Shown here: one piece after another, positions 1-21,583 of the stretch
Layout of the letters: each line of letters opens with the position of its first letter
Numbering within the stretch: position 1 is the first letter of the stretch
Assembly: GCF_000009705.1 (NCBI RefSeq)
Contig: NC_003272.1
Span: forward strand, 3,630,001 to 3,662,000
Reading direction: 5' to 3'
DNA from: Nostoc sp. PCC 7120 = FACHB-418
GTDB taxonomy: Bacteria > Cyanobacteriota > Cyanobacteriia > Cyanobacteriales > Nostocaceae
Length of the DNA: 32,000 nt
Notes under the pieces: generated by a model
What the model was told of the DNA's origin: nothing
The model's database searches: none
What the model saw: only the letters and a program-made list of their open reading frames with translations
Position numbers and translations under genes: made by a program

Positions 1-36
1 CTGATGAGTTCGCCCAGTATTTTTTAGGTTAATGAG

Positions 37-960
37 ATGACTGTTGCAAAAAAGCACTGGTTTCAAATAGCTTTTCAACTTAGAGGCTCAGTTATTGGCG
101 CAATTTACAAACGCGTTATTTGCTGTGCTTTATTTGGGGTATTAGTTACTTTACTTTATCAACTAAAAATTCCAGTATCTCAACCAATTTTAGGTAGCGT
201 TATTCCTAGTATTGTTCTAGGTTTATTACTCGTTTTTCGGACAAATACTGCTTATGATCGTTTTTGGGAAGGGAGGAAAGCCTGGGGTTCTATAGTCAAC
301 AATACCCGTAATCTAGCTAGACAAATTTGGGTATCAGTGGAGGAAGTATCACTAAAGGATAGAGAAGCTAAAATATCAGTTTTAAATTTACTAGTAGCTT
401 TTGCTGTAGCTACTAAATTGCATTTGCGTGGAGAACCGATAAATAGTGAACTAGAAGATTTGATATCAACTTCTCGATATTTCAAACTTAAGAGCATGAA
501 TAATCCGCCTTTAGAAGTAGCGTTCTGGATTGGAGATTATTTACAACAGCAATATACTTGCAAGTGCTTAAATAGTTATCAATTAACATCTATACAAGAA
601 TTATTAAACAATTTAGTTGATAATTTAGGTTCTTGTGAACGGATTCTCAGAACACCTATGCCTTTAGCTTATTCTATACATCTCAAGCAATTATTATTAT
701 TATATTGTTTTCTCCTGCCTTTTCAAATGGTGGAGAGTTTGGGTTGGTGGACGGGTTTAGTTGTGGGGTTAGTGAGTTTTACATTATTTGGTATTGAAGC
801 GATTGGCTTAGAGATTGAAAATCCTTTTGGCTATGATCCTAACGATTTACCATTAGATGCTATCTGTAACACTATGAAGCGAAATATTGACGATTTAACT
901 AGTTTATCTCCCAATGTGCGTTCTCATGATCTGGGTGAAACTTCAAATGTGACAATATAA
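37..960 (+). CDS. Bestrophin-family (UPF0187/YneE-like) anion channel
   Basis: 307-aa ORF with ATG at 37. Hydrophobic N-terminal helices are followed by the family-typical TNTAYDRFWEGRKAWG motif and an ENPFG segment near the C-terminus. Confidence 0.8.
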   Translation: MTVAKKHWFQIAFQLRGSVIGAIYKRVICCALFGVLVTLLYQLKIPVSQPILGSVIPSIVLGLLLVFRTNTAYDRFWEGRKAWGSIVNNTRNLARQIWVSVEEVSLKDREAKISVLNLLVAFAVATKLHLRGEPINSELEDLISTSRYFKLKSMNNPPLEVAFWIGDYLQQQYTCKCLNSYQLTSIQELLNNLVDNLGSCERILRTPMPLAYSIHLKQLLLLYCFLLPFQMVESLGWWTGLVVGLVSFTLFGIEAIGLEIENPFGYDPNDLPLDAICNTMKRNIDDLTSLSPNVRSHDLGETSNVTI

Positions 961-6102: not shown

Positions 6103-6972
6103 CTACAGCATCTGCCGCAATTCTTCAATTGTTTTGGCAGCAACAATTTTGCGTAAGATTTCCTTTAAAGTGACTAAATCTTCAACTTGACTAATTTGTG
6201 GCAATAGTTCTAAACCGTTTTGGCCAAACTTTGCTTCTAAATTAGTTTCAATACCGGACATCAATCCCAGCAGTTGACCGCGCGCTTCACCGCGTGCTTC
6301 ACCGCGTGCTTCACCTTCTCGCAAAATTTCTTGATACCAAGGCGATTCACGTAAAACAGCCATATCCCACCTCATAATTTCTTGAACTAAAGCACTCTCT
6401 AACACAAACGTAGCAAAAAAAGCTAGGACTGTTTCTAACTGATTGAGTTGTTCGTCCGCACGCAGCATTTGCAACGCTTCTCGAATGATTAACTCATTCT
6501 CACCACCCTTAAGAAGGGGTACAAAGGGAAGTAGGGAAGGTAAAGGTTGTTGGAAAGCAATATTTACATCAACTTCCCAAAGATTAATGACTCGATAATC
6601 TTGTATCGCCCGTAATCCTGCAAGATTTGATGTAAAGCTTGTGGGTACTTCTTCGTTACTAGTTTTGAGAATATTGATTAAAACGGGATATGTAGGTAAA
6701 TTATACTTTTCTTCTGCCAGTGCCGCATAAGCCCTCATCCGTCTTGGCATTTGGGGTTGATAGCGTAACTGTAATTCGTTGAGGACTAAAAATTCACCGT
6801 ATTCAGGACTGGTGACACGAATTAAAACATCACTCTCTCGGCTAATCCATTGAAAATCAGAACTGAGAATTTCTCCAGCGACAACATCAGAAAGCTGTGT
6901 CACCCATCTTACCCAGTTGTTGGGTGCTAGGCTGATTAATTTTTTGGTGCTGATGTCTGCGGCTTTAGTCAT
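6103..6972 (-). CDS. Rpn-family / DUF4351-type putative recombination-promoting nuclease (PD-(D/E)XK transposase-like)
   Basis: The ORF track gives 6103-6996 from a TTG; the ATG at 6972 (MTKAAD...) is more plausible. Architecture typical of cyanobacterial Rpn/DUF4351 proteins, with SPWYQEILREGEARG followed by a C-terminal helical tail. EARG is repeated 3 times. Confidence 0.65.
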   Translation of the reverse strand: MTKAADISTKKLISLAPNNWVRWVTQLSDVVAGEILSSDFQWISRESDVLIRVTSPEYGEFLVLNELQLRYQPQMPRRMRAYAALAEEKYNLPTYPVLINILKTSNEEVPTSFTSNLAGLRAIQDYRVINLWEVDVNIAFQQPLPSLLPFVPLLKGGENELIIREALQMLRADEQLNQLETVLAFFATFVLESALVQEIMRWDMAVLRESPWYQEILREGEARGEARGEARGQLLGLMSGIETNLEAKFGQNGLELLPQISQVEDLVTLKEILRKIVAAKTIEELRQML

Positions 6973-7122
6973 TATGTGGTGAACGCACTCAAGCAATAAA
7001 ATTTATCGTAACTTAAAGAAGCTCCCTGCTTGAAGCTTTCACTATAAAGAGATTCAGACACGGAAGTTTGACATTTATTGCTAATGGTAGGTTTAGAATA
7101 TTAGAAAAAACTTGATTGCAAA

Positions 7123-7659
7123 GTGAATCAAACAGCCGTGAATCAGAACGGTGCAATGCCAAAAAGCAGTGAGCCTACATATTATTCTCTGCTAGGACTG
7201 CATCCCTCAGCATCGGTAATCGATATCCGCCGCGCTTATCGGGAACTGAGCAAGCGTTATCATCCTGATACTACAGAATTGCCTGCTGCTCTTGCTACTA
7301 GACAATTTCAGCAAATTAATGAAGCCTACGCCACGCTGAGTAACCCAGACAGGCGTTTAAATTACGACTTAAAAATCGGCTATTCTCGTTTTGGGGTCAT
7401 TCAAGCACCATCCGACTTGAATCGTCCCGCCTCTTATTCTTACGATTACTCAAAATCCGCTTACCTGGATGCAAGCGATCGCCCCCTCTCCCCTGGCGAA
7501 ATATTTGCTTTATTTATTTTGGGTTTAACGTTAGTCGGTTGTCTACTCCTGGCAATTACCATTGCCTTTCTTCGTGGTGATGCACTTTTTCCACCACCGA
7601 TACAACAATCGATTTCTTATCTGTCACAATTAACTGTTCTGGCTAATTTCAAATTTTGA
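7123..7659 (+). CDS. Membrane-anchored J-domain protein
   Basis: J domain YYSLLGLHPSASVIDIRRAYRELSKRYHPD, plus a C-terminal hydrophobic helix (IFALFILGLTLVGCLLLAITIAFL). GTG start at 7123; alternative ATG at 7156. Confidence 0.8.
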   Translation: MNQTAVNQNGAMPKSSEPTYYSLLGLHPSASVIDIRRAYRELSKRYHPDTTELPAALATRQFQQINEAYATLSNPDRRLNYDLKIGYSRFGVIQAPSDLNRPASYSYDYSKSAYLDASDRPLSPGEIFALFILGLTLVGCLLLAITIAFLRGDALFPPPIQQSISYLSQLTVLANFKF

Positions 7660-7665
7660 ATTATT

Positions 7666-7938
7666 ATGTCTCTTCCTCCTGCTAACACGCCCTTATATAG
7701 TCATCCTCTCCCCCAAATTGAACAATGGTTAAAGGAGCAAGGTTGTCAACAAGATGATACACAACTACACTGCTGGCGTTTACAGTGTCCCAGTTGGCAA
7801 GCTGAACTTTGGCTTGATGTTGAGCAAATTGTAGTGCGCTACGTCCAAGCTGGGGAAAACGGCCAAGATATTCAACGCGCGTTTAAATATTCCCTCAGCC
7901 GAGAAGATATTGAACAAGCCGTATTTTCTGGCCCGTAA
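7666..7938 (+). CDS. Small conserved cyanobacterial protein, probably DUF3143 family
   Basis: 90-aa ORF 6 nt after the J-protein stop, so operon-like. The family name is recalled from the LYSHPLP...EQWL pattern only. Confidence 0.5.
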   Translation: MSLPPANTPLYSHPLPQIEQWLKEQGCQQDDTQLHCWRLQCPSWQAELWLDVEQIVVRYVQAGENGQDIQRAFKYSLSREDIEQAVFSGP

Positions 7939-7994
7939 GAGAGAGATGGGGAAGCAGGGGGAGTAGAGGAAGCAGGGGAAGTGGAGGGATAAAT

Positions 7995-8043
7995 CCCCAG
8001 TCCCCAGTCCCCAATCGCCAGTCCCCAATTCCCAATCCCCAAT
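7995..8043. repeat. STRR1 heptamer tandem repeat (CCCCAGT/CCCCAAT, 7 units)
   Basis: ccccagt ccccagt ccccaat cgccagt ccccaat tcccaat ccccaat, abutting the uppS stop codon. Preceded by the purine-rich imperfect repeat gaagcagggg x2 (7947-7989). Confidence 0.9.
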
Positions 8044-8045
8044 CC

Positions 8046-8795
8046 CTAAACTTTCCCAAATCGCCGTTCTCTTTGCTGATATGCACATAAGGCGCGATGA
8101 AACTCTGTACGGTCAAAATCTGGCCAGAGAGTATCAGTAATATAGATTTCCCCATAAGCCATTTGCCATAGTAAGAAATTTGAGAGGCGCATTTCGCCAC
8201 TGGTACGGATTAATAAGTCTGGGTCGGAAATTCCGGCTGTGTATAAGTGGCGTTCAAATACTTCTTCGTTAATTTCATCTGGTTGTAGTAGACCTTGCTG
8301 AACTTTTTGGGCGATCGCCCGGCAAGCTTGTAAAATCTCCTGCCTTCCTCCATAATTGGTGGCGACAGAAAACCGAATACCGCGATTATTTTTAGTTTCT
8401 TCCATAGAGCGGGAAATTTCCGCTTGCAGCGATCGCGGCAAAGCTGTTAAATTTCCTACAAACTGAATCTGCACATTCTCTTCGACCATTTCCCGCAGTT
8501 CTTGACGTAAAACTCTTTGAAACAGAGTCATCAGAAACTCTACTTCTTCCTGTGGTCTTTTCCAGTTCTCTGTGGAAAAAGCATAAGCAGTCAGCGCCTG
8601 AATCCCCCAGTCTCTACAGCAACGTAGTAAATCCTTGAGGGCATCTACTCCTCGCTTATGACCCATAATTCGGGGTAGACCTTGACGTTTAGCCCATCGA
8701 CCATTGCCATCCATAATTACTGCAACGTGTTTGGGCAGTAGTTCTCGTTTTAAATCCAGGGGCAATTCTTGCAGTTCAGTTTGTTGTATTGTCAT
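8046..8795 (-). CDS. uppS: Isoprenyl transferase / undecaprenyl-diphosphate synthase
   Basis: 249 aa. Contains [32 protein letters not shown] and [18 protein letters not shown] signatures. The start overlaps the cdaA stop (ATGA on the minus strand, 8792-8795). Confidence 0.95.
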
Positions 8796-9757
8796 TTTTT
8801 ATCTTGAGAAGCGGTCTTATCCCTACGGGGAAGTAAACTACGCGTGGCACGTCGAAGACGTGGTAAACCGGGTAAACGTGAAACCAGTGCTAGTGTCTGA
8901 TCACCTATCTGACGACCCAAACTGAACAAGCCGGGAGCAACGGCTTCCCGATCTACTATCGGGGACAATCGAGCTTCTAATGACTCTTTCAGCTTCCTAA
9001 TTGTCAGGGGTCTATTTAGAGTTCCCCTTTCCGCTAAGGAAATAGAACCCGTCTCTTCTGATACAACGACACAGATACAGTTTTCGACCCGCTCAGTAAT
9101 CCCCATTGCTGCCCGATGGCGTGTTCCCAACTGGCGTGAGGCTGTGCGTCCCGAAAGCGGTAAAATTATACCCGAAGATACGATCCTTGAGCCACGAATT
9201 AATGTTGCTCCATCATGTAATAGGGTTTTTGGCTGAAAAATTGTCTGTATTAGTTCCTTGGAAACGTCCGCATTGAGTTTGACTCCAGGCACAGAAAAAT
9301 CTCGTTCGTCGATGGGGCCAGTGGTTTCCAAAATTAGCAAAGCTCCAATTCGGTTTTTCGAGAGTTCCTTTACCGCTTCCACGATTTCATCAATTACACT
9401 ATCAGACTTGGGAATGGTTAGATTGGCTGGTTGCAATAATTGTCGGAATTCACCACGCCCTAGTTGTTCTAAAAATCGCCGAAATTCTGACTGGAGAGCA
9501 ACAGCCATTGCTACAGCACAGCCAATCACTAATTTTTCCAGCACAAAATTTAGCAGTGGTAGACCAAATCTACCACTGAGCGCTGATGCCAGCATCAAAA
9601 CAATAAATCCTCGCACCATCCACAAAGTCCGGCGCTCACTAATGATCACTAGTATCATGTAGGTCAACACCAGCACCAATACAATATCCAGAGTCCCAAG
9701 CAGCAAGGACTGTGACCATCCCAGGTTTGCCAGCCATTGCTTCCCTAAATCTCTCAT
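8792..9757 (-). CDS. cdaA: Diadenylate cyclase CdaA (c-di-AMP synthase, membrane-anchored DAC domain)
   Basis: 321 aa. N-terminal TM helices, then the DAC-domain motifs [15 protein letters not shown] and [12 protein letters not shown]. Confidence 0.9.
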
Positions 9758-9805
9758 GACATCTGGATTCTAATAGTCATTTGTTAGTTGTCAGTTGTCA
9801 GATGC

Positions 9806-9838
9806 CAGTAGTCAGTCTTTTTTAGCTACTGACTACTG
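9806..9838 (-). promoter_or_regulatory. Intercistronic stem-loop formed by inverted STRR blocks between lysA and cdaA
   Basis: cagtagtcag (9806-9815) is the exact reverse complement of ctgactactg (9829-9838), giving a 13-nt U-rich loop. The flanking heptamers tgtcagt and ctactga extend the repeat blocks to 9775-9858. Confidence 0.55.
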
Positions 9839-9853
9839 ACTATTGATCACTGA

Positions 9854-11248
9854 CTATTTAAGTCTTTCTGGTAAACAATCTTGCCGAATTAAGTCTTGAT
9901 AAGTTTCGCGTTGCAAAATTAAGTTTGCTTCGCCATTTGCCACTACAACTGCTGCCGGTCGGGGTAGGCGGTTATAGTTAGAGGCCATACTGTAATTGTA
10001 CGCACCAGTTGCCATAACTACGAGAATATCGCCTGGTTCAGTTTTTGGTAGTTGGGCATTTTTAATCAGAATATCCCCTGATTCGCAATGCTTACCCGCA
10101 ATAGTAACTGTTTCTGTATGGGGGGCAGATAATTTATTGGCAATTACTGCCCGATAAACTGACTGGTAAGTAATTGGGCGTGGATTATCAGACATACCCC
10201 CGTCTATGGAAACGTAGGTACGGATTTCCGGTATTGTTTTAGATGAGCCAACAGTGTATGCGGTGATGCAGCTGGTAGCAATGAGCGATCGCCCTGGTTC
10301 AGATAATAGCTTTGGTAAAGGCAAGTTTTCGGCTGCACAAGCTGCTTGCACTACTTCACAAATCGCCTTCACCCACTCATCAATGCTTGGTGGATCGTCT
10401 GATTCTACATATTTAATTCCCAAACCGCCACCAACATTTAATTCGGTGACATTCAAACCATATTTATTCGCATCCCTTAACCACTGCACCATGACAGCAG
10501 CTAAATCTCGATGGGGTTGGCGCTCAAAAATTTGCGAGCCAATATGAGCGTGTAATCCTACGCAGTTGAGATTTGGTTGCTGGCTAACAAACTCAAAAAC
10601 CTCAGCCAAATCGTTGGGGTCAAAGCCAAATTTACTATCCAGGTGTCCTGTGCGAATGTATTCGTGAGTATGACATTCTATACCAGGAGTTAAGCGCAAC
10701 ATGAGCCGGATTGGCTCTTCTGAGTCGGCTAAACTCGCCAATATACGCAATTCATACCAATTATCTGCAACGATTGTTACACCAGATTCAATTGCTAAAA
10801 CCAGTTCCTCACGAGATTTATTATTCCCGTGGAGGTAGATTTTAGCGGGACTCACACCAGCAGCTAGAGCAGTGTAGAGTTCGCCTCCCGAAACTACGTC
10901 AATTCCTAAACCTTCTGAGGCTGCGATCGCACAAACAGCTAAACAATTCCATGCTTTAGAGGCATACAATACCTGAGATTCTCCAGGATAATATTTTTGG
11001 AAACCATCCCGGTATTGCTGACAAGCTGTGCGTAGGGTTTCTTCATCTAATATATATAGAGGTGAACCAAACTGCTCAACTAGAGTTGTGACATCACACC
11101 CACCAATTTCCAGGTTTCCTTGACTGTTAGCTTTAGCAGTTAGAGGTAAAAGTTCCTGGTTGGGAGAAATATTTGTATTTGTGTTGCGCCTTTGAGGTAG
11201 ATACTGAGTACCAGCATCTTGAACCCCAGCCGGGTGAGTCGATACCAT
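9854..11248 (-). CDS. lysA: Diaminopimelate decarboxylase
   Basis: 464 aa. Typical PLP-dependent Orn/DAP/Arg decarboxylase layout (YASKAW, HAHIGSQI, EPGRSL, CESGD). Confidence 0.95.
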   Translation of the reverse strand: MVSTHPAGVQDAGTQYLPQRRNTNTNISPNQELLPLTAKANSQGNLEIGGCDVTTLVEQFGSPLYILDEETLRTACQQYRDGFQKYYPGESQVLYASKAWNCLAVCAIAASEGLGIDVVSGGELYTALAAGVSPAKIYLHGNNKSREELVLAIESGVTIVADNWYELRILASLADSEEPIRLMLRLTPGIECHTHEYIRTGHLDSKFGFDPNDLAEVFEFVSQQPNLNCVGLHAHIGSQIFERQPHRDLAAVMVQWLRDANKYGLNVTELNVGGGLGIKYVESDDPPSIDEWVKAICEVVQAACAAENLPLPKLLSEPGRSLIATSCITAYTVGSSKTIPEIRTYVSIDGGMSDNPRPITYQSVYRAVIANKLSAPHTETVTIAGKHCESGDILIKNAQLPKTEPGDILVVMATGAYNYSMASNYNRLPRPAAVVVANGEANLILQRETYQDLIRQDCLPERLK

Positions 11249-19358: not shown

Positions 19359-19894
19359 AATTGAGAAATTGCAGTAGCTTTTAACTATTAACAATGATTT
19401 ATTATATAATAATGTGATTTCTAAAAATGATATTTATTACTAATTTATAAGATTCAATTAGGTTTCAAATTGAGTAGTTGATTAACTTTGTGTAATTTAT
19501 ATATTTTAACATCTAGCTTAAGGCTGATATAAATTAATAAAATCCATCTTCATATAAATTAATAAATATCTTTCAAGGTTTTTGTCAAAAAAATATGACT
19601 TTAATTTGGGTAATCTTCAACCTCAATATTTGATTCTGGTGGAAAAATTTGACTAGCTTTAATAAACCCCACTTGGTTATAGGTGTTTGCAAGGCTTGAT
19701 TAGTAAGAACTTCTGCAAAAATCACCCAAAATCCTTGTAGATTAAAGCTGAAATACCAGTAATTCTATCGGGTAAGTAGGCTTATAAATTCCTATGTTGA
19801 AAGTACTATTGACTCCTTAAAAGGATGTGGTTACTGTTATGAGTAGTCCTTGTAAAAGGCTATTTGTACATCAAAGATTCACGAGGTATTTCCT

Positions 19895-20257
19895 ATGATG
19901 ATGATGATGACTGAATCTATGACCGCCGAAATGCAAGCCTGTATGAAAGCTTGTATGGATTGTCATAAAATGTGCATGGAAACCATGACTTACTGCATGA
20001 GCAAGGGCGGTATGCAGATGGACATGAGCATGATGGGTATGATGCGCGACTGCTCGGAAATGTGCATGATGTGCGTGAATATGATGATGGGTGGTTCCGA
20101 ATTTATGGGACGCACTTGTATGTTGTGTGCGGAAATGTGCGATCGCACTGCTATGGCTTGCGAACAAATGAGCGGTGATCAAATGATGATGGACTGTGCA
20201 ATGGCTTGTCGCAAATGTGCAGAAGCTTGTAGATCCATGCAAATGATGCCTGCTTAA
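19895..20257 (+). CDS. DUF326-type cysteine-rich four-helix-bundle metal-binding protein, extreme Met-rich variant
   Basis: 120 aa. Repeated CxxxC-type helices (CMKACMDC, CSEMCMMC, CMLCAEMC, CRKCAEAC) as in DUF326 proteins. 38 Met and 16 Cys counted from the translation. GAGG lies 8 nt upstream of the ATG. Confidence 0.8.
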   Translation: MMMMMTESMTAEMQACMKACMDCHKMCMETMTYCMSKGGMQMDMSMMGMMRDCSEMCMMCVNMMMGGSEFMGRTCMLCAEMCDRTAMACEQMSGDQMMMDCAMACRKCAEACRSMQMMPA

Positions 20258-20295
20258 TTCCATGACTTAGCAGAAGTTTCTCTGCAACCTAATAT

Positions 20296-20420: not shown

Positions 20421-20441
20421 AATTACGAATTACGAATTACG
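20421..20441. repeat. Heptamer tandem repeat AATTACG x3
   Basis: Direct reading, just upstream of the 20459 start. Confidence 0.8.
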
Positions 20442-20458: not shown

Positions 20459-21256
20459 ATGAAACATTTAAAATCCCGTTCCCAAGACTTGCGGAGCTTG
20501 TTTGAGAACAATATCACAATTGAATATGTAGCTGAAGCCTTGAAAGCTGTACCAGCAGAGGCGGAAGTAGTAGAGGTGTTGGGGTGGATGCGATCGCAAG
20601 ATTTTGATGTTGTTGGGGTGGAAACGGGTGATACAATAACTGGCTATATTGAACGCGCTAGTTTAGTGCAGGTTAAATCTGGTAAGTGCGGTGACTATCA
20701 GCGAGTGTTTCATCCTAAGGAACTGATTGCGATTTCTACGCCACTGATGAAGTTACTACCCATCTTGCAACAAAATCCGCGTTTGTTTGTTCTCGACTGC
20801 AATCAGGTGAGTGGGATTATTACCTGTGGTGACTTGCAGAAAGCGCCTGTGAGAATGTTGCTCTTTGGTTTAGTTACTTTGCTGGAGATGAATCTGTTGA
20901 GGTTGGTAAGGCTTTACTATCCCCAAGACGCTTGGCAGAAAGTTCTCAAGTCTGATCGCCTAGAAGTTGCGCGCAGGTTATGGCGTGAGAGTCAAGAAAG
21001 AAACGAAGCCACAGATTTACTAGATTACCTGCAATTTTGTGACAAGCGAGAGTTAGTCTTACATCAACCAGAACTGCTGGAACAACTAGAACTAAAATCA
21101 AAACGCGCTGGTGAACGGTTTTTAAAATCTGCTGAACAATTACGCAACCGATTAGCCCACGCCCAAAGTTTAGTTAGTGGTTCTTCTTGGAATGATTTAA
21201 TTTCTTTAGCAGAAGCGATGGAAAAACTCCTAATTCGCTGTGAAGAAATAGAGTGA
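20459..21256 (+). CDS. Predicted CBS-pair domain fused to a C-terminal HEPN-like (Rx4H) helical domain
   Basis: N-terminal ~130 aa have two CBS-like units (DFDVVGVETGDTITGYIERASL; LFVLDCNQVSGIITCGDLQKAPVR). The C-terminal helical half carries R229-N-R-L-A-H234, matching the HEPN Rx4-6H motif with a polar residue after R. Confidence 0.5.
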   Translation: MKHLKSRSQDLRSLFENNITIEYVAEALKAVPAEAEVVEVLGWMRSQDFDVVGVETGDTITGYIERASLVQVKSGKCGDYQRVFHPKELIAISTPLMKLLPILQQNPRLFVLDCNQVSGIITCGDLQKAPVRMLLFGLVTLLEMNLLRLVRLYYPQDAWQKVLKSDRLEVARRLWRESQERNEATDLLDYLQFCDKRELVLHQPELLEQLELKSKRAGERFLKSAEQLRNRLAHAQSLVSGSSWNDLISLAEAMEKLLIRCEEIE

Positions 21257-21291: not shown

Positions 21292-21312
21292 TTGGTAATT
21301 GGTAATTGGGAA
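21292..21312. repeat. STRR-type heptamers TTGGTAA x2 plus TTGGGAA
   Basis: Direct reading. Followed by the tandem cgcagaggggcgcagag / cgcggaggagcgcggag motif (21325-21365). Confidence 0.8.
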
Positions 21313-21555
21313 GAAACTCTTCAAACGCAGAGGGGCGCAGAGTAAAACGCGGAGGAGCGCGGAGATTGCCTAATTTTATTAATGTTGTACTTAGTACCTC
21401 AAGAGATTAGGAAACGCTATAAATATTATCAATTAGCTATTACTCATGACTAGCACATGAATTTATAAATAGCAACTTACGTTATATAGCTGTAGCCAGA
21501 TAGATTAGGACATCAAGCTAAGATAAAATCCTGATAAAACAAGGCTTTCTAGTCT

Positions 21556-21583
21556 GTCAACCGTCAACCGTCAACCGTCAACA
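21556..21583. repeat. Heptamer tandem repeat GTCAACC x3 plus GTCAACA
   Basis: Direct reading, abutting the stop codon of the 21585-23426 gene. Confidence 0.85.

Follow-up and report, generated by a model that had tools for sequence, protein, structure and literature searches.

Does the gene alr3009 of the filamentous cyanobacterium Nostoc sp. PCC 7120 encode an RNase that is switched by a nucleotide and, if so, does this enzyme serve the physiology of its host or its defence against phages? The gene was examined within a 32-kb stretch of contig NC_003272.1 (positions 3,630,001 to 3,662,000), which is referred to here as the window; residue numbers are those of the alr3009 protein. The product of this gene is very probably a fusion of a CBS pair with a HEPN domain. 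The probability that it works as a ligand-gated RNase, i.e. as a stand-alone sensor-effector made of a single polypeptide, with a HEPN domain of the Swt1/Abi2-like clade and a rigid, extremely conserved junction helix, is estimated at about 0.6. A preliminary description of the same DNA had proposed an RNase switched by a nucleotide, and this proposal is supported: it agrees with a published prediction for the same gene (PMC3710099) and with the behavior of mutants of DS-11, a related protein of Escherichia coli (PMC13092281).

The protein predicted in the window is 100% identical to the cluster holding BAB74708.1 of Nostoc/Anabaena sp. PCC 7120 and close relatives. We take the locus numbers of hetR, ntcA, hetP, hepA, hetN, nrrA and patN to be 2339, 4392, 2818, 2835, 5358, 4312 and 4812, respectively. 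The accessions given in a paper for the same genes of PCC 7120 (BAB74038, BAB76091, BAB74517, BAB74534, BAB77057, BAB76011 and BAB76511, respectively) are separated from these numbers by an offset of 71699 common to all seven pairs, so that BAB74708 corresponds to locus 3009; its position on the + strand and its length of more than 100 amino acids (aa) give the name alr3009.

alr3009 is a real gene under strong purifying selection. In pairwise comparisons with 75 orthologs, the ratio of nonsynonymous to synonymous substitution rates (dN/dS) is 0.047 at the median and does not exceed 0.086; synonymous sites are saturated. The N-terminus, MKHLKS, is kept in homologs, and the GC content of the gene (0.42-0.46) matches that of the surrounding genome. 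A survey of the best 80 genome loci retrieved, all of them from Nostocales, revealed one locus per assembly in 80/80, with equal length and 85-98% identity. An exhaustive HMMER search of the wider family yielded 1,947 representatives (50%-identity clusters) at E ≤ 1e-3, including 278 at E ≤ 1e-30. Nearly all of these are ~260-280 aa long and align end to end, and members are present in cyanobacteria, Chloroflexi, Nitrospirota and haloarchaea. A contig of a metagenome-assembled genome (MAG) labelled “Leptolyngbyaceae cyanobacterium” (DATNQO010000201.1) carries an ortholog with 93% identity, as close as the orthologs of Anabaena/Nostoc, while other non-Nostocales cyanobacterial orthologs lie far below this level (64-70%); the sequence comparison suggests either that this contig is from Nostocaceae and was mis-binned or that its taxonomic label is wrong.

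To describe the architecture of the protein, a full-length AlphaFold2 model was built on an alignment of 64 sequences, with secondary structure assigned by DSSP. The model has a predicted local distance difference test score (pLDDT) of 95.5 and a predicted template modelling score (pTM) of 0.89, the latter indicating confident packing between the CBS and HEPN domains. Residues ~27-128 form two beta-alpha-beta-beta-alpha units. A Foldseek search of the Protein Data Bank (PDB) with this half returned CBS pairs exclusively, among them ST2348, MJ0922, CBSX1 and the Bateman modules of IMPDH and CNNM (2ef7, 2p9m, 4gqv), at E ~1e-5 and with target-normalised TM scores of 0.65-0.79 over ~120 aligned columns. 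The family profile aligns with PH0107 (2yzi) over the whole CBS pair (E = 3e-4), PF00571 is matched by 36 of the 64 family members at E ≤ 0.01 (best 1.2e-10), and several homologs had already been assigned to it by precomputed annotation. The earlier reading of the N-terminal half as two CBS units is thus borne out by the fold, by the profile match to 2yzi and by the PF00571 matches.

Bateman modules bind AMP/ATP, S-adenosylmethionine (SAM), Ap4A or c-di-AMP, depending on the protein. The two units of alr3009 differ in their ligand motifs, whose conservation was counted across an alignment of 319 full-length homologs that reaches down to ~31% identity. CBS2 holds a canonical ribose/phosphate-binding motif, G119-I-I-T122-C-G-D125-L, with T122 kept in 307/319 and D125 in 319/319 homologs. 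The corresponding motif of CBS1, G62-Y63-I-E-R-A-S68, is degenerate: G62 is found in 302/319 and an aromatic residue (Y/F/W) at position 63 in 317/319, while position 68 is variable. The candidate ligands are not discriminated by sequence, and the model of CbpB, a c-di-AMP-binding protein, was matched weakly by one of the 64 family members. The CBS half is also weakly similar, in the CBS fold alone, to SriA and SriB (chains 4 and 5 of PDB 9znf, released 2026), which are CBS-domain proteins solved on the 70S ribosome of Methanosarcina acetivorans. Their binding shows that CBS-pair proteins can dock on ribosomes, and docking of this kind may hint at the place where a CBS-HEPN RNase meets its RNA.

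HEPN domains are defined as four-helix up-down bundles in which helices 2 and 3 are separated by an insert and helix 3 ends in an Rx4-6H motif (PMC3710099). Residues 129-265 of alr3009 are all-helical in both the full-length and a domain-only AlphaFold2 model. The order of their elements and the placement of the motif match this definition, a correspondence in the order of secondary structure only and not in three-dimensional packing. The window protein matches HEPN_Swt1 at E = 0.006. Six HEPN Pfam families are matched across the 64 family members: HEPN_Swt1 by 22 (best E 1.3e-6), RiboL-PSP-HEPN by five, Apea by four, and Csm6 HEPN, MAE_28990 and AbiU2 by one each. No competing Pfam family covers the region among these members, and one of them has a precomputed PF18735 (RiboL-PSP-HEPN) assignment. 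A weak PDB profile match to a CRISPR-associated protein, 8y75, pairs LRNKLAH of the family with WRNSVAH from the C-terminal region of that protein (E = 0.12, not significant).

The predicted catalytic motif is R229-N-R-L-A-H234. Since 19% of shuffled C-terminal halves contain Rx4H (46% contain Rx4-6H) and the protein contains a second, non-conserved copy, it is the conservation and not the motif itself that constitutes the evidence. R229 and H234 are each present in 319/319 homologs and A233 in 310/319, while 243 homologs have N and 76 have D at position 230; the Arg and the His are also invariant in the 64-sequence alignment (down to 31% identity). The second copy, R197-ELVL-H202, was rejected as an extra active site, H202 being conserved in 47/319 homologs only. 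The preliminary description had read the C-terminal half as all-helical and HEPN-like, with R229 and H234 in a HEPN Rx4-6H motif and the usual polar residue after the Arg. The codons and the models confirm the helices and the motif, all 319 homologs have N or D at position 230, and the HEPN assignment holds on the six Pfam families, the matching topology and the invariant Arg and His.

The most conserved segment of the family lies between the two domains (residues 120-150). In 176 homologs with <60% identity the mean identity of this junction is 68%, compared with 42% overall. D125 and E143 were noted as invariant (E143 in 316/319), and K128, P130, R132 and F136 are near-invariant. Such conservation is expected if ligand binding passes mechanically into HEPN helix 1, and we infer that the junction acts as an allosteric coupler. 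In the mechanism that we propose, alr3009 would dimerise, in line with HEPN RNases and CBS pairs generally, and an adenosyl ligand would occupy the single canonical site formed by T122 and D125 of CBS2. Binding would shift the junction helix, i.e. HEPN helix 1, and this movement would assemble or disassemble a composite R229/H234 active site, by which metal-independent RNA cleavage would be turned on or off. Of these elements, dimer formation, the nature of the ligand, the RNA target and whether binding activates or represses cleavage are all inferred.

Both the architecture and the hypothesis of a ligand-gated RNase were already published for alr3009 itself in 2013, so that the fusion is not a new finding. 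In their survey, Anantharaman, Makarova, Burroughs, Koonin & Aravind (2013, Biol Direct 8:15) listed among the Swt1-like HEPN fusions “CBS and HD (alr3009), active” (PMC3710099). The entry concerns the same gene and is a one-line item of a computational catalogue, with no experiments. The group that it names includes relatives with an HD domain, which alr3009 does not have according to Pfam and NCBIfam scans. As a discovery claim the CBS-HEPN fusion therefore adds little, and what the present analysis contributes beyond the 2013 entry is the size of the family, the evidence of vertical inheritance and the conserved junction.

The closest experimental counterpart is DS-11 of E. coli (WP_000257686.1; NCBIfam NF053863, “CBS domain-containing anti-phage protein”), described by DeWeirdt et al. 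with DefensePredictor (Science 2026; PMC13092281). Phage defence is lost with any one of three substitutions, Y157A in its CBS part or R330A or H335A in its HEPN domain (PMC13092281). The protein is predicted by AlphaFold3 to form a dimer with bound ATP, and according to the proposed logic its HEPN nuclease is regulated by the CBS module, to which an adenine derivative binds (PMC13092281). Like alr3009, DS-11 is a one-protein system with an N-terminal CBS part and a C-terminal HEPN domain, with homology extending over both domains and with equal R-x4-H spacing (R330/H335 and R229/H234). NF053863 matches the window protein with 25.1 bits (E = 8.4e-6; residues 27-234, aligned to positions 84-284 of the 305 in the model) and is matched by 25 of the 64 family members (best E 1.3e-9). 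This score does not reach the equivalog cutoff of 260 bits, and on sequence grounds alr3009 is best regarded as a distant homolog of DS-11, not an ortholog or a member of its family. The two proteins also differ in length (~365 aa, encoded by a 1098-nt gene, vs 265 aa), DS-11 having ~80-100 extra N-terminal residues without a counterpart. Moreover, DS-11 is a variable defence gene of the E. coli pangenome, whereas the alr3009 clade is one highly constrained locus per sampled Nostocales assembly.

Several observations weigh against a ligand-gated HEPN RNase. Every single-sequence Pfam match of alr3009 stays below its gathering threshold, with 14.4 bits vs a cutoff of 24 for PF00571 and 17.2 vs 27.5 for HEPN_Swt1. 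CBS1 is without the canonical Thr/Asp ligand motif, and some CBS pairs serve purely as dimerisation modules. A Foldseek search with the isolated C-terminal model reached E-values of 1.1 (PDB) and 1.8 (BFVD) at best and returned no significant structure, be it of a HEPN or of an alternative fold, so the HEPN assignment is not corroborated by three-dimensional comparison. Taken with the ease with which Rx4H arises by chance, these points would suit a C-terminal half that is an unrelated helical bundle, in which the conserved Arg and His serve ligand or metal binding or the like. We give this explanation hardly any credence: six independent HEPN Pfam families, and nothing else, match the region across family members, one of which is precomputed as PF18735, the topology, the position of the insert and the placement of the motif match the HEPN definition exactly, the homology to DS-11 continues through the motif, and Foldseek offers no other fold. 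It is also improbable, though slightly less so, that the protein is a non-catalytic regulator whose HEPN-like bundle binds RNA or a partner without cleaving, with the CBS pair as a sensor or dimerisation module. Some HEPN domains, such as those of eukaryotic Swt1 and some copies in nematodes, have been interpreted as binders devoid of activity (PMC3710099), and several homologs of alr3009 bear the JGI label “predicted transcriptional regulator”. Inactive HEPN domains, however, lose the motif, whereas the alr3009 family keeps both catalytic residues throughout, with N or D after the Arg; Anantharaman et al. scored the group as active (PMC3710099), the R330A and H335A mutants of DS-11 lose function, and no DNA-binding domain was found in Pfam/NCBIfam scans of alr3009.

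The N-terminal half of alr3009 superposes on the CBS-pair proteins IMPDH, CNNM/CorC, OpuCA, CbpB/DarB and CBSX and keeps G-h-h-T-x-x-D in CBS2, but unlike all of these it is joined to a putative RNase as the output domain. A comparable design is found in Csm6/Csx1 of type III CRISPR systems, in which a nucleotide-sensing domain is fused to a dimeric HEPN RNase and switches it allosterically upon binding an adenosine-based ligand. The sensor of alr3009 is a CBS pair and not a CARF domain, and neither a CRISPR-cas locus nor a cyclic-oligoadenylate synthase was found in the window. HEPN-MNT type II/VII toxin-antitoxin (TA) systems likewise hold a HEPN RNase toxin in check until it is needed. Control of alr3009 would be exerted in cis by the fused CBS pair; no minimal nucleotidyltransferase (MNT) gene (NTP_transf_2) adjoins alr3009, whose neighbors are a Met/Cys-rich open reading frame (ORF; + strand) and genes for TspO and a TPR protein (both on the - strand).

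The second part of the question is whether such an RNase serves the cell or its defence. We favor, by ~60:40, an endogenous role in the cyanobacterial clade over anti-phage defence, namely RNA turnover or growth arrest tied to the nucleotide or energy state of the cell, a role of the kind put forward by Anantharaman et al. The clade appears to be vertically inherited, unlike typical defence genes, since it occupies one locus in 80/80 Nostocales assemblies, with a dN/dS of ~0.05, native GC content and no relatives in phages or on viral contigs. In close relatives the identity levels of alr3009 equal those of flanking housekeeping genes. The homolog of Snowella has photosystem genes as neighbors, lying among psaJ, psbX, ycf66, psaK and glpX, and that of Aerosakkonema lies among metabolic and regulatory genes. 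No relatives were found in 50,697 phage records or in IMG/VR contigs, and the only plasmid relatives are five proteins with 24-30% identity encoded on non-mobilisable haloarchaeal megaplasmids; carriage of alr3009 by mobile elements was rejected on these grounds.

The competing view is that alr3009 is an abortive-infection effector like DS-11. By the same molecular mechanism, the CBS pair would sense a phage-induced change in adenine nucleotides and the HEPN RNase would kill or arrest the infected cell. The sole experimentally tested relative, which shares the two-domain layout and the R-x4-H spacing, is a defence gene, and HEPN domains occur mostly in conflict systems (PMC3710099). A MazEF-like pair lies ~2 kb from alr3009 and, together with an HSDR_N-domain protein, within 2-5 kb, some distant homologs adjoin an MNT-HEPN TA pair (in Nitrospirota) or an SNF2 helicase gene, and a defence role would be compatible with vertical inheritance. 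We nevertheless consider an anti-phage function rather unlikely. With 25 bits vs the 260-bit cutoff alr3009 is no ortholog of DS-11, PADLOC gave no match for its protein, and its absence from phage records, IMG/VR contigs and mobilisable plasmids and its housekeeping neighbors in Snowella and Aerosakkonema speak against a typical defence gene; most such genes are patchy and turn over fast, which is at odds with one conserved locus of native GC content under strong constraint in all 80 assemblies.

Two distant homologs were found in settings of a different kind. In a Nitrospirota MAG (6813-8786), a CBS-HEPN homolog with 45% identity lies directly downstream of a classical TA pair of MNT and HEPN (PF01909/PF05168) and a 104-aa ORF. 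On another contig (7001-10719), the 3′ end of the homolog overlaps the end of a convergent gene encoding an SNF2/RapA_C helicase. Both contexts look accessory, in contrast to those of the cyanobacterial genes.

Features of alr3009 and of its neighborhood are summarized in Table 1. The gene always stands alone. Synteny is poor even within Nostocales, and no gene near alr3009 remains syntenic outside its closest relatives: in the 80 loci, TspO was found within 6 kb in two, the TPR protein in five and UPF0014 in three, and the sole frequent neighbor is the upstream Met/Cys-rich ORF (21/80). The product of this ORF has no Pfam, NCBIfam or PADLOC match and may be a metal-binding (copper?) helical-bundle protein. 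On the other strand, a His-rich ORF (19871-20263) is no gene but the antisense image of the Met/Cys-rich ORF. The MazE- and MazF-like genes comprise a type II TA pair, which lies ~2 kb upstream of alr3009 and is not conserved beside the orthologs in the 80 other Nostocales loci. The gene encoding the HSDR_N-only protein, with a weak PADLOC match to the N-terminus of a type IIG restriction endonuclease-methyltransferase, probably represents either a fragment that was acquired or a nuclease-like gene standing on its own. The AT-rich accessory stretch reported near alr3009 exists (14.8-16.6 kb; GC 0.31-0.34 vs ~0.42-0.50 around it) and holds this HSDR_N gene, although alr3009 itself has the GC content typical of the genome. 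The second of two small overlapping ORFs gave a match to TIGR03698 (E = 3e-8, below the cutoff), and no matches were obtained for the first. A defence-island setting was not supported: besides the lack of a PADLOC match for alr3009, its neighbors yielded only generic matches (the N-terminal restriction endonuclease fragment and TPR).

Table 1. Features of alr3009 and the surrounding DNA in the 32-kb window
Feature	Position in window	Residues of alr3009	Strand	Basis or remarks
Complete coding sequence of alr3009, ATG start	20459..21256	1-265	+	265 aa; ORF call and 100% identity to the cluster with BAB74708.1
CBS motif 1	20537..20683	~27-75	+	DSSP E30-32, H37-47, E51-56, E59-65, H66-69; Foldseek CBS-pair matches
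CBS motif 2	20708..20842	~84-128	+	DSSP E89-91, H96-105, E108-113, E116-122, H123-127; Pfam CBS match, residues 92-129
CBS2-HEPN junction, IITCGDLQKAPVRMLLFGLVTLLEMNLLRLV	20816..20908	120-150	+	Most conserved segment of the family
HEPN domain	20843..21253	129-265	+	Domain-only AlphaFold2 model, pLDDT 95.3; Pfam HEPN_Swt1, residues 150-250
HEPN helix H1		129-153	+	DSSP, both models
HEPN helix H2		165-180	+	DSSP, both models
HEPN helical insert		187-209	+	DSSP, both models
HEPN helix H3, ending in R229...H234		215-234	+	DSSP, both models
HEPN loop		235-243	+	DSSP, both models
HEPN helix H4		244-263	+	DSSP, both models
Predicted catalytic Rx4H motif	21143..21160	229-234	+	C-terminal end of helix 3; codons cgc aac cga tta gcc cac
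Met/Cys-rich ORF, 120 aa, starts MMMMMTESMTAEMQACMKACMDCHKMCMETM	19895-20257		+	Directly upstream of alr3009; 80-99% identity in 21/80 Nostocales loci
MazE-like ORF, 72 aa	17772-17990		+	Overlaps the toxin gene
PemK/MazF-family toxin gene, 120 aa	17980-18342		+	Pfam E = 7e-25
HSDR_N-only protein, 378 aa	14951-16087		-	Carries the N-terminal domain known from R subunits of type I restriction systems
Two overlapping small ORFs, 105 and 126 aa	16956-17638		+	Second resembles clan AA (retropepsin-like) aspartic proteases
DAC-domain gene cdaA	8792-9757		-	10.7 kb from alr3009
lysA (diaminopimelate decarboxylase) - cdaA - uppS (undecaprenyl diphosphate synthase) cluster	8046-11248		-	
Heptamer tandem repeat AATTACG x3	20421-20441			Intergenic
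Heptamer tandem repeat TTGGTAA x2.6	21292-21309			Intergenic
Heptamer tandem repeat GTCAACC x3.9	21556-21582			Intergenic
22-nt repeat, about two copies	21323-21364			

A c-di-AMP synthase gene, cdaA, had been placed 11 kb from alr3009 and mentioned as a speculative link. The gene and its distance stand, but a functional link is not supported, cdaA being part of a lysA-cdaA-uppS cluster; moreover, as genes within 6 kb of the alr3009 orthologs are mostly unconserved across the 80 loci, no general linkage can extend over 11 kb. The intergenic regions that flank alr3009, described earlier as repeat-rich, contain perfect heptamer repeats, which we take to be short tandemly repeated sequences of a kind ordinary for heterocystous cyanobacteria. 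No riboswitch or structured RNA was detected in the whole window by Rfam at gathering thresholds, and the search for sigma-70-type promoters and intrinsic terminators around alr3009 gave none on the + strand and none above shuffle expectation. Among sequence matches of the protein, those to designer pentatricopeptide proteins (6een, 4ozs), which were the top PDB matches with E down to 2e-8, were rejected as a repeat artefact of a 30-residue helix hairpin because they consist of eight identical ~3-bit matches to one hairpin, each with an individual E >200. A Pfam Daxx match (E = 0.022) was likewise set aside, being isolated, below threshold and absent from other family members.

Tentatively, the alr3009 clade may be seen as a domesticated, chromosomally fixed relative of DS-11-type defence RNases, a housekeeping switch whose CBS pair would respond to an adenosyl metabolite or a second messenger, be it energy charge, SAM, Ap4A or c-di-AMP, and would gate the cleavage of specific cellular RNAs by the HEPN domain. 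The gene provides a genetically tractable cyanobacterial model for the gating of a HEPN nuclease by a CBS pair and a natural comparison with DS-11 of E. coli. It thereby bears on whether RNases of conflict systems are recruited to core physiology, a question informed by the ~1,950 cluster representatives of the family, their taxonomic spread and the apparent vertical inheritance in Nostocales. If the proposed role is true, alr3009 would be the first HEPN RNase of bacterial core physiology regulated in cis by a Bateman module, and it would couple RNA turnover or translation to the light-dark or nutrient state in filamentous cyanobacteria.

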